64,000 bases of DNA from Eledone cirrhosa (Eukaryota): positions 56,916,001 to 56,980,000 of the forward strand of contig OZ024747.1 of NCBI GenBank assembly GCA_964016885.1, given 5' to 3'. Below are positions 44,731 to 62,850 of this stretch, piece after piece. The notes below the pieces were generated by a model, which did no database searches, was not told the origin of the DNA, and was given only the letters and a program-made list of their open reading frames with translations. The translations under genes were made by a program, and so were the position numbers. Each line of letters starts with the position of its first letter. The stretch's first letter is position 1.

Positions 44731-44740
44731 GAGGCAATAT

Positions 44741-44980
44741 ATATTTATTAAAATAACAGATTAAAGTTTAAGCAAAGAATCGCTGTTTTCACCCTTAACG
44801 GGATCTTCTGAAACTCCCATTTCAGAAGATCCCGTTAAGGGTGAAAGCAGCGATTCTTTGCTTAAACTTTAATCTGTTATTTTAATAAATATTTGCTCTA
44901 CGGTTCTTATATATCTGATATATATTTATCCTTATCGAGCCCTCTTTGGATTTTAGTCTTCAAATTTATTATTATTACTA
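44741..44980. mobile_element. Foldback element family B (arms 44741-44813 / 44820-44892, tail to 44980)
   Basis: Near-perfect inverted repeat; second copy at 59094-59320; each arm has a CAGAAGA...GAAA hammerhead-like fold. Confidence 0.85.
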
Positions 44981-51269: not shown

Positions 51270-53750
51270 AACACCATAACCCCAAACTAACACCAATTCC
51301 ACCACTACCAACAACAACACTATAACCACAAACTAACATCACAAACACTACCCCCACTAACACAACCACCATCACCACCAACAACAACACTATTACCCCA
51401 AACTAACAACAAACCCACCACTACCATCACAAACACTACCCCCACTAACACAACCACCATCACCACCAACAACAACACTATTACCCCAAACTAACAACAA
51501 ACCCACCACTACCATCACAAACACTACCCCCACTAACACAACACCATCACCAACAACAACACTATAACCACAAACTAACAACAAACCCACCACTACCATC
51601 ACAAACACTACCCCCACTAACACAACCACCATCACCAACAACAACAACACTATAACCACAAACTAACACCAATTCCACGACTACCATCACAAACACTACC
51701 CCCACTAACACAACACCATCATCAACAACAACACTATAACCACAAACTAACAACAAACCCACCACTACCATCACAAACACTACCCCCACTAACACAACAC
51801 CATCATCAACAACAACACTATAACCACAAACTAACAACAAACCCACCACTACCATCACAAACACTACCCCCACTAACACAACCACCATCACCACCAACAA
51901 CAACACTATTACCCCAAACTAACAACAAACCCACCACTACCATCACAAACACTACCCCCACTAACACAACACCATCACCAACAACAACACTATAACCACA
52001 AACTAACAACAAACCCACCACTACCATCACAAACACTACCCCCACTAACACAACCACCATCACCAACAACAACAACACTATAACCACAAACTAACACCAA
52101 TTCCACGACTACCATCACAAACACTACCCCCACTAACACAACACCATCATCAACAACAACACTATAACCACAAACTAACAACAAACCCACCACTACCATC
52201 ACAAACACTACCCCCACTAACACAACACCATCAACAACAACAACACTATAACCACAAACTAACAACAAACCCACCACTACCATCACAAACACTACCCCCA
52301 CTAACACAACCACCATCACCAACAACAACACTATAACCACAAACTAACACCAATTCCACCACTACCATCACAAACACTACCCCCTCTAACACAACCACCA
52401 TCACCACCAACAACAACACTATAACCACAAACTAACACCAATTCCACCACTACCATCACAAACACTACCCCCACTAACACAACCACCATCACCACCAACA
52501 ACAACACTATAACCACAAACTAACACCAATTCCACCACTACCATCACAAACACTACCACCACTATGTCTTGCCAGATCCATTAACTGCAACTACCAGTAC
52601 CACATTCATCAACCATCTACACAACCACCATCACCAACAACACTATAACCACAAACTAACACCAATTCCACCACTACCATCACAAACACTACCCCCTCTA
52701 ACACAACCACCATCACCAACAACAACACTATAACCACAAACTAACACCAATTCCACCACTACCATCACAAACACTACTCCCTCTAACACAACCACCATCA
52801 CCAACAACAACACTATAACCACAAACTAACACCAATTCCACCACTACCATCACAAACACTACCCCCACTAACACAACCACCATCACCAACAACAACACTA
52901 TAACCACAAACTAACACCAATTCCACCACTACCATCACAAACACTACCCCCACTAACACAACCACCATCACCACCAACAACAACACTATAACCACAAACT
53001 AACACCAATTCCACCACTACCATCACAAACACTACCCCCTCTAACACAACCACCATCACCAACAACAACACTATAACCACAAACTAACACCAATTCCACC
53101 ACTACCATCACAAACACTACCCCCACTAACACAACCACCATCACCACCAACAACAACACTATAACCACAAACTAACACCAATTCCACCACTACCATCACA
53201 AACACTACCCCCTCTAACACAACCACCATCACCAACAACAACACTATAACCACAAACTAACACCAATTCCACCACTACCATCACAAACACTACCCCCTCT
53301 AACACAACCACCATCACCAACAACAACACTATAACCACAAACTAACACCAATTCCACCACTACCATCACAAACACTACCCCCTCTAACACAACCACCATC
53401 ACCACCAACAACAACACTATAACCACAAACTAACACCAATTCCACCACTACCATCACAAACACTACCCCCACTAACACAACCACCATCACCACCAACAAC
53501 AACACTATAACCACAAACTAACACCAATTCCACCACTACCATCACAAACACTACCACCACTATGTCTTGCCAGATCCATTAACTGCAACTACCAGTACCA
53601 CATTCATCAACCATCTACACAACCACCATCACCAACAACACTATAACCACAAACTAACACCAATTCCACCACTACCATCACAAACACTACCCCCTCTAAC
53701 ACAACCACCATCACCAACAACAACAACACTATAACCACAAACTAACATTA
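51270..53750. repeat. 85-88-bp C/A-rich minisatellite with a ~1-kb higher-order repeat
   Basis: Unit ctataaccacaaactaacaccaattccaccactaccatcacaaacactaccccc...; interruption actatgtcttgccagatcc at 52561 and 53559. Confidence 0.95.
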
Positions 53751-53819
53751 ACAGCACCACTACCACCAAACCAGCGCCATCAATATTTACACAACACCGC
53801 AACTACAACCTTCATCTAT

Positions 53820-54385
53820 GTTGGACAACATGCTTTATGACATAGAGTAATGGCCCTTTATGATCAGAGTTCAAATCCTACTGAGGCTAAATTTGCCTTT
53901 CATCCTTACGGGGGTTGATAAAATAAAGTACTAGTAATGCACTGGGGTAATTACTGGCCTTGTGCCAAAAGTAGAAACAATTATTATTAATATTATTATT
54001 ATTAGAGGGTTGGACGCCATGCTTTCTAGCATAGTTACGTCCCTTTACGGTCTGAGTTCAAATCCCACCGAGGTTAACTTTGTCTTTCATCCTTACGGGG
54101 TCGATAAAATAAAGCACCAGTAATGTACTGGGTAATTGCTGGCCTTGTGCCAAAAGTAGAAACAATTATTATTATTTTGGCAGTATCGGTAGAGCGTCAG
54201 ACGCCATGCTTTGAAGCATAGAGTTAAGGCCTTTTAAGTTCTGTGTTCAAATCCAGCCGAGGTTAGCTTAGCCTTTCATATTTACGGAGTCAATAAAATA
54301 TAGTACCAGTAATGCACTGGGGTCAATTTAATCGACATTCCCCTTCCCAAAAATTGTTGGCCATGTGCCTAAATCAAATACCAAT
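53820..54385 (+). mobile_element. Three diverged SINE copies in tandem
   Basis: Each has gttcaaatcc...gcctttcat...aaataaagtac; joined by (ATT)n tails. Confidence 0.9.
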
Positions 54386-57170: not shown

Positions 57171-57189
57171 GAGAATCACATGCCATTAT

Positions 57190-57380
57190 TTGTGGATCGG
57201 CAGTATCGGTAGAGGGTCGGACGCCATGCTTTGACGCAAAGAGTTACGGCCCTTTATGGTCTGAGTTCAAATCCTGCCGAGGTTAACTTTGCCTTTCATC
57301 CTTACGGGGTCGATGAAATAAAGTACCAGTAATGCACTGGGATAATTGCTGGCCTTGTGCCAAAAGTAGAAATAATTATT
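57190..57380 (+). mobile_element. tRNA-derived SINE
   Basis: Full copy of the main family. Confidence 0.9.
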
Positions 57381-57771: not shown

Positions 57772-57808
<37 letters not shown>

Positions 57809-59091
57809 ACGTTTAACGTCCGTGTTCCACGCTTGCATGGGTTTGGACGGGGGTAGTCCCACTTGAGGCAAGAGTGATTGTCTTGCTCGCGTAGGACTGT
57901 CTGGCAGGTTTTCTACAGTTGGATGCCCTTCCTAACACCAACCACATTTACAGTGTGGGTCTGGGAGGTTTTTACCGTGTTGCCTACACGGCCACATTAC
58001 AGCGTGGACTGTGTGTTTTTTTGTCTTGACACCTACACGATCTCATTTGTTTCGGCCTGGATGGTGTGGCACCAACACAACTTTACATAGAACTGGGTGG
58101 CGTGGATGGGTTGGGGGTGGTGGGACGGGGGGGGGGGGGTATTTTGTTAGCGATGCCTACTGGCTGTAGTAGGTTTTACTATGTATTTAGGTAAGGCGGG
58201 TCTTCTCTGTTACTGAGTACCGCCAAAGGTCTCGGTCCAGTGACATTGTCTTGGAGAGGTGTAAGTGTGTGAGGTCGGAGTTTATCAGCTCGTCCCAGGT
58301 TTTTCTAGGTCTGCCTATTCCGTGGCTACCGTCTATCTTTATTGCCCTGCACTTTGTTATACAGCTATCGACTTTCATGCGTGTCACGTGTCCATACCAA
58401 CGTAGCCTTCTCTCGAGTAAACAACATCTGATCCCTCTTATCTCTAATTTTTTCCTTAGTTCGTTTATGCTTTGCCGTTCACGTATATTACTGTTACACA
58501 TCCAGCGGAGCATGCAAGCTTCGTTCCTCTCTAGTCTGCGTATATCCTCTGCACACAATGCCCAGGTCTCACTGCCATGCAACATTGCTGTTCGTATGCA
58601 GGCATCGTACAACCTGCCTTTCATTTTTAGGGAGAACCCTTTAGCAGCTAATAGTGGTATAAGCTCTCTGAACTTTTTCCAACCAGTTCTGACTCTAGCT
58701 ACTGTACTTTCAGAGCACCCTCCCCCACTGCTGATTTTATCACCCAGGTAACGGAAACTGTCCACTATTTCTATAGAACCCTCTGCGCAATTGAAAGAGC
58801 TAGTATTTTGTGGGCACTTGCTGCTACTTATTGCACCAGAGCACCGGCCACATGTAAAATCTATGTTCTTAGTTAGCTTACCTGTGATCCCACTACATCT
58901 TTTATGCACCCATACTTTGCATTTAGGACATAAAATGGAGTTTCTACCTACGCCTTTCCTACACACCGAGCACGACCATTTCCCAGAAGGGACCGCCGCC
59001 TTATTTTCTTTCCTACAAACTAGAACTAGAACTTTAGTCTTAGCCAGGTTAATTTTAAGGCCTTTTGATTCTAGGCCGTGCTTCCATGTTT
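57772..59091 (-). mobile_element. Young 5'-truncated RTE LINE; open frame to 58187 with the C4HC3 finger
   Basis: WSCSVC...CPKCKVWVHKRC...CGRC, FRYLG, MLHGSETW, RLRWYGHV; (GAT)n tail. Confidence 0.95.
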
Positions 59092-59093
59092 GG

Positions 59094-59320
59094 ATAGTAA
59101 TAATAATAAATTTGAAGACTAAAATCCAAAGAGGGCTCGATAAGGATAAATATATATCAAATATATAAGAACCGTAAAGCAAATATTTATTAATATAACA
59201 GATTAAAGTTTAAGCACCCTTAATGGGATCTTCTAAAACTAACAAATGTTAGTTTCAGAAGATCCCATTAAGGGTGAAAGCAGCAATTCGTTGCTTAAAC
59301 TTTAATCTGTTATTTTAATT
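59094..59320. mobile_element. Family B foldback element, second copy (tail on left)
   Basis: 59094-59182 is the reverse complement of the 44893-44980 tail; left arm has an internal deletion. Confidence 0.85.
59251..59301 (+). ncRNA. Type I hammerhead-like fold, U4A core (family B)
   Basis: agttt-CAGAAGA-t-CCC-attaa-GGG-t-GAA-AGCAGC-aattc-GTTGCT-T-aaact. Confidence 0.7.
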
Positions 59321-59537
59321 AATACATATATATAAATATGTATATATATATATATATATACCCTGATACTAGACAAGGGAGTAAACAATTAAAACAGGAG
59401 AGTTAAAACAAAGTAAACAAAAAAAATATACTCATACACAAATATATACATACATATAAACATATATGCATGCATATTTACATATGCGCATCCATACATA
59501 TTATTGAGAGAAATCAATGTATATATATATATCAATG

Positions 59538-59573
<36 letters not shown>

Positions 59574-59614
59574 CGATAGTAAACAGATGGAAACTATATT
59601 TATAAAACCATATT

Positions 59615-59680
59615 TATTTCATTATACATATTTCAGGGATACCATATTAAAAATATGGCTTGCCTTCGTCAGATAAAATA
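59615..59680 (-). ncRNA. Type I hammerhead (family E, copy 1, left arm)
   Basis: Reverse complement of 59865-59930 with one helix II change. Confidence 0.78.
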
Positions 59681-59864
59681 CAATATATAAACTGTTTTAT
59701 AAATAATTTTGACGTACCATAAATATAAGCCACCATTAAGGTAGGAAGCTGGCTTGGTAGTGAGGTGTTTATAATTATTTAGTTATAGTGTTAAGCATAG
59801 TTAGAAAGAAAGACAGAGAGAAAGAAGAAATGTATGTAAAGAAAAACAGAGAGAAATAGACATG

Positions 59865-59930
59865 TATTTTATCTGACGAAGGCATGCCATATTTTTAATA
59901 TGGTATCCCTGAAATATGTATAATGAAATA
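59865..59930 (+). ncRNA. Type I hammerhead (family E, copy 1, right arm)
   Basis: tattttat-CTGACGA-AGGcATGCCATATT-ttt-AATATGGTATcCCT-GAA-ATATGTAT-A-atgaaata; predicted cut after 59922. Confidence 0.82.
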
Positions 59931-60058
59931 AATATGGTTTTATAAATATAGTTTCCATTTGTTTACTATCGTATATCTACTCCACAAACTTGTCGAGTGC
60001 TTTATATCGGTTATAAAATATTTACTTGTTGTAACCCAACAATTTTAAATAAAACTTT

Positions 60059-60098
<40 letters not shown>

Positions 60099-60138
60099 CG
60101 ATATTAACAAATGGAAACTATATTTATAAAACCATATT

Positions 60139-60203
60139 TATTTCATTATACATATTTCAAGGACACCAAGTTAAATTAGGGTGTGCTTTCATCAGATAAA
60201 ATA
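60139..60203 (-). ncRNA. Type I hammerhead (family E, copy 2, left arm)
   Basis: Reverse complement of 60408-60472 with one change. Confidence 0.78.
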
Positions 60204-60407
60204 TAATATAGATCAGTTTTATAAATAAATATTGACATAGGTAAAGGTATGTTCTTTAGAGAAGAGATCTTAAAGAATTCCATTTTCCAGTTAGAATATA
60301 AAGCGCTCAACAATACAGGAGCAGAATATATGTAAAAGTTCTATTTAAATTGTTGGGATACAAGAAGTAATATTTTTATAACTTATTTATAAAACTGATC
60401 TATATTA

Positions 60408-60472
60408 TATTTTATCTGATGAAAGCACACCATAATTTAACTTGGTGTCCTTGAAATATGTATAATGAAATA
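60408..60472 (+). ncRNA. Type I hammerhead (family E, copy 2, right arm)
   Basis: tattttat-CTGATGA-AAGcACACCA-taatttaact-TGGTGTcCTT-GAA-ATATGTAT-A-atgaaata; predicted cut after 60464. Confidence 0.82.
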
Positions 60473-60626
60473 AATATGGTTTTATAAATATAGTTTCCAT
60501 TTGTTAACAATTTAAATAGAACTTTTACATATATATATACATATACATATATATATATACATATATATATACATATACATATATATATATATACATACAT
60601 ATATATATACATACATATATATATAC

Positions 60627-60671
<45 letters not shown>

Positions 60672-60775
60672 CATATATATATATACATATATATACATAC
60701 ATACACATACATACATACACATACATACATACACATACATATATATACATATACATACATACATATATATACATA

Positions 60776-60813
<38 letters not shown>

Positions 60814-60974
60814 CATACACATACATATATATACATATATATACATATACATACATATATATACATATACATACATATATATACATATACATACATATAT
60901 ATACATATATATATATACATATATATACATACATATATATACATATATATATATACATATATATACATACATAC

Positions 60975-61007
<33 letters not shown>

Positions 61008-61622
61008 CATCATATATATATATACAGAGAGAGAGTGTGTGTGTGTGTGTGCTGTGAGAGTGTGTGATGTGATGTGTGTGTTTATATTTCTCTAATCCTT
61101 CATTCCTTACTCTCGATCTACTAAACTCTTCCACTACACTACTCCTAGTTTATAGTGGAGCCATTCTGCTATTCCTTAATTCTGTCATTCCTTAATTCTC
61201 AATGATCACTTGAACAGTTACAAAATAACAAACATTAAACAAGAATTCAAATCACCTTAAGCAATTTTACAATTCATTTCAATGATTTATGTCAAGAAAA
61301 GAAAATGGAGGACTTTTTATTTTTAAATTGTATTTTATATATATTTCATATTTTATATTTATATATTTCAGTTCTTTCTTTAGTTTATTTTATATTTTAC
61401 TCATTTATTTTATATTTTCTTTTCTGTCATTTTATTTTTCATTCTATTTCATCTATTATATTATATATTTTATTTTATCTATTATATTATATATTTTATC
61501 ATATATAATTGTTATATAATTATTTGTTATATATTTTCTGTTTTACAAAGCCTTTATTTTTGTTATTGTATATCATATTTTTTCATTATAATTTTTCCTT
61601 TTTATATATATATATACACACA

Positions 61623-62547
61623 CATCATCATCATCATCATCATCAACGTTTAACGTCCGTGTTCCACGCTTGCATGGGTTTGGACGGGGGTAGTCCCACT
61701 TGAGGCAAGAGTGATTGTCTTGCTCGCATAGGACTGTCTGGCAGGTTTTCTACAGTTGGATGCCCTTCCTAACACCAACCACATTTACAGTGTGGGTCTG
61801 GGAGGTTTTTACCGTGTTGCCTACACGGCCACATTACAGCGTGGACTGTGTGTTTTTTTGTCGTGACACCTACACGATCTCATTTGTTTCGGCCTCGATG
61901 GCGCGGCACCAACATAACTTTACATAGAACGGGGTGGTGTGGATCGGGTGGGGGTGGTGGTGGTGGGACGGGGTGTATTTTGTTAGAGATGCCTACTGGC
62001 TGGAGTAGGTTTTACTATATATTTAGGTAAGGCGGGTCTTCTCTGTTACTGAGTACCGCCAAAGGTCTCGGTCCAGTGACATTGTCTTGGAGAGGTGTAA
62101 GTGTGTGATGTCGGAGTTTATCAGCTCATCCCAGGTTTTTCTAGGTCTGCCTATTCCGTGACTACCGTCTATCTTTATTGCCCTGCACTTTGTTATACAG
62201 CTATCGACTTTCATGCGCATCACGTGTCCATACCAACGTAGCCTTCTCTCGAGTAAACAACATCTGATCCCTCTTATCTCTAATTTTTTCCTTAGTTCGT
62301 TTATGCTTTGCCGTTCACGTATATTACTGTTACACATCCAGCGGAGCATGCAAGCTTCGTTCCTCTCTAGTCTGCGTATATCCTCTGCACACAATGCCCA
62401 GGTCTCACTGCCATGCAGCATTGCTGTTCGTATGCAGGCATCGTACAACCTGCCTTTCATTTTTAGTGAGAACCCTTTAGCAGCTAATAGTGGTATAAGC
62501 TCTCTGAACTTTTTCCAACCAGTTCTGACTCTAGCTACAGTACTTTC

Positions 62548-62591: not shown

Positions 62592-62729
62592 TATTTTTTT
62601 ATATTATTATTCATTACATTTTTATTATATTGCATCATTCAGAATATTTTATTATATAATATATAAAAATATATTGTCTAACCCATTCTAGCGTGGAAGA
62701 TAGGCGTTAAACGATGATGGTGATGATAA

Positions 62730-62850
62730 GTTACAGCCCTTTACGTTATGAGTTCAAATCCTGCTGAGGTTAGCTTTGTCTTTCACCCTTACAGGGTCAA
62801 TAAAATAAAGTACCAGTAATGCACTGGAGTCAGTTTAATCGACTTGCTAT
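62730..62850 (+). mobile_element. SINE fragment
   Basis: gagttcaaatcc...ctttcaccctt...aaagtaccagtaatgcactgg. Confidence 0.85.

Follow-up and report, generated by a model that had tools for sequence, protein, structure and literature searches.

The four type-I hammerhead motifs found within about 1 kb of the Eledone cirrhosa genome are best explained by two likely independent head-to-head insertions of a Penelope-like element (PLE) of the Hydra clade, whose hammerheads likely cleave only as dimers in the RNA of the element and for which no activity is predicted at this locus. We assign this reading a probability of about 0.85. Rather than a device, the cluster is two stacked insertions, left as a by-product by an element whose kind is known. 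The stretch of DNA analysed, subsequently called the window, comprises 64 000 nt of contig OZ024747.1; it is AT-rich and microsatellite-rich and belongs to a genome of 3.0 Gb. Positions refer to the window unless a locus is named.

Four hammerheads in two inverted pairs

A descriptor-based motif scan of both strands yielded five type-I hammerhead candidates in the window, four of which make up the cluster under study:

59680–59615, minus strand: copy 1, core at 59672, cut after 59623, one helix II pair broken
59865–59930, plus strand: copy 2, core at 59873, cut after 59922
60203–60139, minus strand: copy 3, core at 60195, cut after 60147, one helix II pair broken
60408–60472, plus strand: copy 4, core at 60416, cut after 60464

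The original prediction had placed four hammerheads here, and its cuts after 59922 and 60464 match those of the scan. The fifth candidate (17295–17385, minus strand, core at 17373) folds no better than shuffled sequences (z 0.49) and was taken as a chance match. All four copies share an 8-bp helix I (UAUUUUAU/AUGAAAUA), the length that had been claimed, the core CUGANGA and GAA, helix III AUAUGUAU with the A15.1-U16.1 pair, and an AUA cut site with A17 at the H17 position; hammerhead numbering, like the G5A and G8C core-mutant controls, is established, and G8C also figures in PMC11167929. The 10.1-11.1 pair is A-U in each copy, with no unpaired base after A9. No Rfam hammerhead model matched, at the gathering score or at E ≤ 10, and the search returned only microsatellite-driven miRNA noise.

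Helix II comprises 13 pairs and a 3-nt loop in copy 2, and nine pairs and a 10-nt loop in copy 4. The compensatory changes predicted between the two are present: G-C to A-U at pair 2, U-A to C-G at pair 6 and G-U to A-U at pair 7, with a C.C mismatch at pair 4 in both copies and C versus U at N7. Copies 1 and 3 each carry one helix II change that breaks a pair. Copies 1 and 2 differ at 3 positions in 117 nt and copies 3 and 4 at 1 in 125 nt, whereas copies 2 and 4 are 88.6% alike; the pairs are therefore 1+2 and 3+4, each arranged head to head. A same-strand spacing of about 540 nt had been proposed for both strands, which holds for the plus strand (543 nt) but not for the minus strand, where we measured 523 nt. 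The locus is composed as follows:

59518–59573, no strand: left (TA)n microsatellite, likely target site, judged by its sequence and by the (TA)n ends of the family's arms
59572–59860, minus strand: insertion 1, left arm, a pseudo-LTR piece of ~290 nt, subfamily A, short 3′ end, holding copy 1; 97.6% identical to the natural copy L085 over 295 nt
59863–60062, plus strand: insertion 1, right arm, subfamily A, holding copy 2; 99.5% identical to L085 over 217 nt
60062–60097, no strand: (TA)n tract separating insertions 1 and 2, from the sequence
60096–60239, minus strand: insertion 2, left arm, subfamily B, short 3′ end, holding copy 3; 97.3% identical to L091 over 146 nt
60238–60389, minus strand: rearranged piece in the middle of insertion 2, made up of tail and the first 15 PLE codons and joined to the left arm; 88.5% identical to L091
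60383–60507, plus strand: insertion 2, right arm, subfamily B, holding copy 4; 99.2% identical to both L091 pseudo-LTRs over 125 nt
60506–60530, plus strand: terminal part of the long tail of insertion 2, which has lost ~75 nt internally; 96.6% identical to the L091 tail end
60530–61025, no strand: right (TA)/(TACA)n microsatellite, from the sequence

Copies 1 and 2 match subfamily A (L085), and copies 3 and 4 match subfamily B (L091). With the pairs assigned in this way, the helix II differences between copies 2 and 4 are fixed subfamily differences. The four-motif cluster very probably arose through two separate insertions, one by each subfamily and both head to head, into the same (TA)n tract, and the spacing of same-strand copies, which belong to different insertions, is then accidental. 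Among 158 motif matches in the loci collected, with overlapping loci counted repeatedly, 41 were identical to copy 2 and 25 to copy 4.

The right arm of insertion 1 is truncated 2 nt before helix I and has a long 3′ end with a tail of ~90 nt (59974–60062). At the junction of its two arms (59860–59865) lies the 6-nt palindrome ACATGT, two letters of which match neither arm. In insertion 2 the middle piece holds the frame ATG at 60283 (MEFFKISSLKNIPLP), and 14 of 18 residues are identical to the start of the PLE protein P0002 described below (tblastn). This piece is only 88.5% like subfamily B, compared with 97–99% for the arms, and other loci reach at best 95% over 93 nt; it may stem from the RNA of another subfamily through template switching.

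Short inverted repeats near microsatellites pose difficulties for assembly. Pieces of the stretch occur in independent DNA contigs, none of which spans it or bridges a junction, so that the junctions rest on the assembly alone. Nevertheless, we regard an assembly artefact as extremely unlikely: the arms are not identical (3 differences in 117 and 1 in 125 nt), they have two different fixed end sites and come from two subfamilies, and this geometry is normal in the family and has been described for PLEs. A DNA element with terminal inverted repeats was ruled out, as the inverted pieces derive from the pseudo-LTR and the tail of the PLE.

The spacing of the same-strand copies had led to the proposal that one transcript could form a hammerhead dimer in cis. 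In its full form the locus would be a functional unit, a read-through transcript of either strand pairing its two same-strand hammerheads and releasing an RNA of ~540 nt in a retrozyme-like manner. Spacings of 543 and 523 nt would suit such a unit, and the identical helices III and I permit a mixed dimer of copies 2 and 4 (−27.9 kcal/mol as isolated strands). However, either strand of 59560–60530 folds all four motifs into hairpins of 117–125 bp with their antisense twins, leaving helix II a probability of 0.0. Ahead of each sense copy, on the same strand, lies a 97–99% identical antisense copy, so the twin is always made first and cotranscriptional folding should favour the hairpins too; in the stretch 59865–60472, the included antisense copy 3 sequesters copy 4 on folding, as well as the 3′ half of copy 2. 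Moreover, copies 1 and 3 have a broken helix II pair each, and the block is not a head-to-tail tandem. A repeated retrozyme-type mini-element of 330 nt running through the 60238/60239 junction was ruled out as well, as only the copy in the window spans this inner junction among the best 40 of 807 candidates. Non-LTR retrozymes (PMC7229834; bioRxiv 10.64898/2026.07.22.740005) are also short, low in GC, non-coding and PLE-related and carry type-I hammerheads, but as described there they are head-to-tail tandems of 150–450 nt units with a hammerhead in each, whereas the present locus consists of two head-to-head pairs, one from each of two subfamilies, with (TA)n between them. The functional unit is highly improbable on these grounds; the two separate insertions, the hairpin folds and the helix II probability do not support a cis dimer from one transcript, and the folding makes cis-dimer cleavage from this locus very unlikely. 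The four motifs are predicted to be inactive here, and read-through transcripts would yield double-stranded RNA of 117–125 bp.

The window contains further repeats. A dispersed, RT-bearing LINE with a (CAT)n tail has left two 3′ fragments on the minus strand, at 57786–59090 and 61623–62530, which are 96% alike over 665 nt; more copies occur across the window, and a 399-codon open frame of the same kind is found at 37578–38774. The 630-nt repeats at 57786 and 61623 were also considered as LTRs, which was ruled out because they are the 3′ ends of this LINE with its further copies in the window. A tRNA-like match at the Rfam threshold lies at 13759–13822 (minus strand), and several repeats of 94–157 nt with a tRNA-like T-arm (53820–54321, 57185–57380, 62672–62828) are probably a tRNA-derived SINE. 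A tandem array of 85–88 nt units with strong GC and AT skew occupies 52000–53835.

A Hydra-type family and its genomic footprint

A genome search with 60326–60530 returned 654 candidates; the 40 that were scored were mostly 95–100% identical over ~127 nt. A GIY-YIG-type frame was found in the flanks of two loci, and 20 stretches then tied the hammerhead to that frame. In L091, whose hammerhead matches copy 4 at 99.2%, the motif flanks a degenerate frame, its two occurrences lying 3691 nt apart, and the element ends in (TA)n. L088 likewise has a hammerhead on both sides of the frame, 3951 nt apart, and in L081 an intact 742-aa RT/GIY-YIG frame (P0002) starts 235 nt after the hammerhead core. 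The motif thus lies upstream of the RT/GIY-YIG frame, and L091, L088 (both sides of the frame) and L081 place it in the pseudo-LTR of a PLE. The frame of L081 (3175–5403 of that locus) is uninterrupted; it retains YRDD, and an Asn-rich stretch separates its RT from its endonuclease.

P0002 contains RWR (position 37), DKT (118), YRDD, CxCX5C (CNCRNKSNC, 601), VY..YVG (621), CxxC (CDLC, 699) and CxH (CRH, 726); it lacks GxKF/Y and CCHH, as members of the Hydra clade do, and has a single Cys inside the GIY-YIG core. Pfam and PDB sequence searches of P0002 gave nothing significant, whereas a protein search with the PLE protein found 323 relatives among 7999 scored, the best at 39% identity and the nearest named one from Argonauta hians. 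Our literature search on cephalopod or octopus Penelope and PLE hammerheads brought up a single relevant paper (Craig et al. 2021, PMC8557442). According to its section 11 and Files S1 and S2, PLEs of the Hydra clade insert in (TA)n and carry hammerheads, their hallmarks include DKT, CxCX5C, a C-terminal GIY-YIG and CxxC/CxH, and the function of the hammerheads is called still unclear. Hydra elements such as Hydra-1_Obim and Penelope-13_HM share with the present family a single frame of RT and C-terminal GIY-YIG with these motifs, the (TA)n target, a pseudo-LTR hammerhead and the inverted 5′-truncated copy; Penelope-13_HM has one sense and one antisense hammerhead in File S2. (TA)n insertion and a canonical hammerhead core, which mark the clade, are both found here. 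The family differs from the clade as described there in several respects. The unit measures 3.7 kb between hammerheads (3691–3951 nt) instead of the typical, not defining, <3 kb; RWR replaces RWK, a conservative change; helix II has 9–13 pairs with an inner C.C mismatch and helix III is an AU-only 8-mer; the tail is ~90 nt, compared with 30–40 bp published; ~47 000 motif copies are present; and the Hydra motifs given in File S2 do not include this hammerhead sequence.

With P0002 placed in the Hydra clade by shared motifs, noted by eye, the hammerhead motifs are almost certainly type-I hammerheads in the pseudo-LTR of a high-copy PLE of that clade. We describe a new and very abundant family of Hydra-type PLEs with dimer-type hammerheads, of a kind that is already known, and with its uninterrupted natural frame in L081 the family looks recently active.

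A broad motif pattern matched the genome 47 094 times and a reversed control 0 times in 3.0 Gb, so that the motif is not a chance occurrence; a strict pattern gave 15 160 matches. About one motif per 64 kb is expected in the genome at this density. Within 5 kb of the first 100 strict matches we counted 23 neighbours in −/+ orientation, six on the same strand (1.0–4.9 kb apart) and none in +/− orientation; the first 100 broad matches gave 21, 5 and 3, respectively, and two −+−+ clusters. The head-to-head pair is the usual footprint of the family. The same −+−+ layout recurs within 800 nt in L150, with two other subfamilies and (TA)n between them. In the fetched loci 38 of the 41 −/+ neighbours share a helix II type. 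Thirty of these 38 same-family pairs combine one short end with one that is ~90 nt longer (for example L150 400–1480 and L152 360–860), in loci that were drawn by similarity search and not at random and of which L054 and L057 look duplicated: 25 are short plus long, one (insertion 2 of the window) is short plus long with an inner loss, and in four a short arm faces one that runs into the frame. The other eight comprise one long/long pair, one scored as short/short whose plus arm runs into the tail, and six unclassed pairs.

Inverted 5′-truncated copies, tails at one end and palindromic junctions are known for PLEs (PMC8557442; PMC3846280), and opposite-strand dual hammerheads 100–700 bp apart have been reported (PMC4209133). 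Eight of the 41 inverted pairs are near-perfect palindromes with 0–10 nt at the centre, which suggests fold-back priming. Poseidon, a PLE of Anolis (Frangieh et al. 2024, PMC11167929), also has its hammerhead at the start of the pseudo-LTR and ORF, an AT-rich target and two fixed 3′ ends that match two reverse-transcription starts in the account given there; by analogy we infer that the two fixed ends of the present family would fit two such starts. Poseidon belongs to another PLE clade and its ORF starts inside the hammerhead, whereas the frame begins ~235 nt after the core here and the tail is longer.

In the mechanism that we propose, the endonuclease of the element would nick (TA)n, and reverse transcription would start at one of two fixed sites, ~50 and ~140 nt past the cut site. 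Fold-back of the cDNA or a second priming event would then copy the opposite strand, giving one short-ended and one long-ended arm, and the (TA)n flank would have served again when another subfamily inserted later. In full-length tandem transcripts, two motifs would pair via the 8-nt self-complementary helix III, probably with help from the protein of the element, and the paired motifs would cut after AUA and thereby trim the tandem precursor RNA.

Covariation and the pairing of helix III

We aligned 28 copies that were found with a pattern requiring the core and chosen to cover different helix II types. Overall, 94.4% of the cells pair, and all nine helix II pairs show changes on both sides. 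The covariation value of 0.367 compares with 0.236 in shuffled alignments (reached in 0 of 500) and with at most 0.142 in slid controls. Although relatedness can lift sequences above shuffles in the absence of any structure, the pair-count measure likewise lies beyond 499 of 500 shuffles. Helix I is 97.3% paired, with one-sided G-U changes only, and the catalytic core is invariant in these copies, which were selected for it. The 10.1-11.1 pair is A-U in 16 copies, G-U in six, G-C in four and unpaired in two. The four copies of the cluster do not follow the consensus of G10.1-C11.1 with an unpaired base after A9 (PMC4209133); published Hydra motifs depart from it too, and Hydra-1_oBim also has A-U at 10.1-11.1 (PMC8557442, supplement).

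The two central letters of helix III, which would form a free loop in a monomer, are UG in 24 945, UA in 21 043, CG in 556 and CA in 68 of the 47 094 copies, with 482 others; a centre capable of self-pairing (UG, UA or CG) is therefore present in 46 544 copies (98.8%). Most of the listed CG-centre copies have helix II types of their own, whereas the 68 CA-centre copies are scattered over many types. A tree of 27 copies, with the two centre letters masked and the CG rows picked from the CG search, requires at least eight changes among UG, UA and CG, of which the well-supported branches force only three each for UA and UG and one for CG. A mutation bias towards A-to-G could favour the step from UA to UG, and the count of switches could be raised by exchange between subfamilies. 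The centre pattern gives moderate support to pairing between two molecules.

Palindromic-helix-III PLE hammerheads of the same type were reportedly described by Lunse et al. in 2017. The minimal and palindromic PLE hammerheads of Cervera and de la Pena (2014, PMC4209133) are, in the features given there, also of type I, located in pseudo-LTRs and equipped with a long helix II and a small palindromic helix III for which dimer cleavage was proposed, and many covarying families occur per genome. Helix I is 8 bp in our family and 4–5 bp in theirs; A10.1-U11.1 without a bulged base before helix II in the four copies, and a helix III centre that switches among three self-pairing states across subfamilies, set the present motifs further apart.

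Helix III had been described as very weak as a hairpin and fully self-complementary. Indeed, the A15.1-U16.1 pair has a probability of ~0.0005 in monomers, as expected for the dimer type, and the helix can pair with itself over 8 bp, with U-G at the two central pairs. The claim of PLE-type hammerheads with real helix II covariation and a dimer-type helix III is borne out by the loci that tie the motif to a PLE frame, the 28 aligned copies and the 47 094 matches. Cleavage as a monomer, with long helices I and II holding the core, a 2-bp helix III sufficing and the self-complementarity incidental to AT-rich sequence, could draw on the length of helix I (8 bp) and helix II (9–13 bp), which exceeds that of minimal PLE motifs, on a helix II probability of ~0.93 in isolated motifs and on the ease with which AU-rich 8-mers become palindromic. 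We nevertheless consider it quite unlikely, given the negligible A15.1-U16.1 probability and central bases that self-pair in 98.8% of all copies, with CA confined to 68 scattered ones.

Predicted energies favour the dimer by a thin margin. The double hammerhead is calculated at −32.2, −23.6 and −27.9 kcal/mol for copies 2+2, 4+4 and 2+4, respectively, compared with −20.6, −12.0 and −16.3 kcal/mol for two active monomers and −28.6, −21.0 and −24.8 kcal/mol for two inactive best folds. It is thus ~11.6 kcal/mol better than two active monomers but beats the inactive folds by only 2.6–3.6 kcal/mol; the UG-centre helix III duplex alone contributes −2.2 kcal/mol. In natural flanks the outer helix II pairs have probabilities of 0.83–0.97 in L085, of 0.01–0.98 in L091 depending on the stretch folded, and of 0.01 in L081 at all four folding sizes. 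These predictions would fit the low in vitro activity (PMC4209133) and the protein-assisted cutting (PMC11167929) stated for other PLE hammerheads. Real dimer cleavage by members of the family is somewhat more probable than not.

A further reading would connect helix III to insertion itself: the self-pairing helix would join two template RNAs of one integration event, and the resulting protein-RNA dimer would prime both (TA)n strands from two fixed starts ~90 nt apart. Template-dimer priming of this kind would produce one short and one long end and would account for centre swaps among UG, UA and CG. We regard it as speculative and rather unlikely.

A sister family with A at core position 4

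Next to the cluster, another PLE family of the Hydra type has inserted:

59176–59330, plus strand: palindromic insertion of the second Hydra-type PLE family, with a hammerhead-like right arm (59250–59305) and the core CAGAAGA, which has A at position 4

It also occurs at 44737–44905 of the window and in loci L153–L174. The pattern for this A4 core matched the genome 24 302 times; 284 matches have C, G or U at position 4, which leaves A in ~24 018. The motif lies ~197 nt before a frame that is 42% identical to P0002 over 672 columns, and the sister family has the same −/+ pairs and (TA)n ends. Helices can be drawn for it (5-bp helix I, 3-bp helix II with U.U, helix III of 4–5 bp), although the hammerhead fold reaches −6.0 kcal/mol and the best fold −8.8 kcal/mol. 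No natural A4 core variant is given in the literature searched or in the text of section 8 of PMC3088659. Either the A4 motif would be a core variant that occurs in nature, or a highly successful element would carry a ribozyme that no longer works.

The sister family bears on the possibility that the motifs of the whole PLE family have little or no catalytic activity, their fold being retained because the PLE protein binds to it or because it signals dimerisation between RNAs. Its ~24 000 copies with A at core position 4 argue for this, as do the active fold not being the predicted ground state, the slowness of PLE hammerheads in vitro (PMC4209133) and the anole PLE, whose motif, in the experiments reported, cut only with protein, was dispensable for in vitro insertion and had no RNA reads ending at its site (PMC11167929). 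On the other hand, N7 and helix II vary freely among the 28 aligned copies but the catalytic core is retained in every one, within a set for which the pattern required the core, and core mutation abolished cutting in the anole element (PMC11167929). A silent motif is therefore possible but doubtful, and we prefer hammerheads that likely act as dimers in the RNA of the element.

The locus itself is ordinary transposon debris, and each of the features first noticed in it, from the PLE hammerhead and its palindromic helix III to the pairs on opposite strands and the covarying families, is already in print. The value lies in the family, which is young and large and includes a natural copy with an intact frame. 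It offers natural evidence on a genome scale for dimer pairing through helix III, and shows a clean rule of one short and one long end with an unusually long tail; together with its A4 neighbour, in which a non-consensus core base is fixed, it forms a matched pair for testing the function of PLE hammerheads. If the two template RNAs are indeed joined through helix III, the A4 family would be either a new active core variant or a natural proof that cutting is dispensable, and the question of what PLE hammerheads do would become directly testable within one genome.
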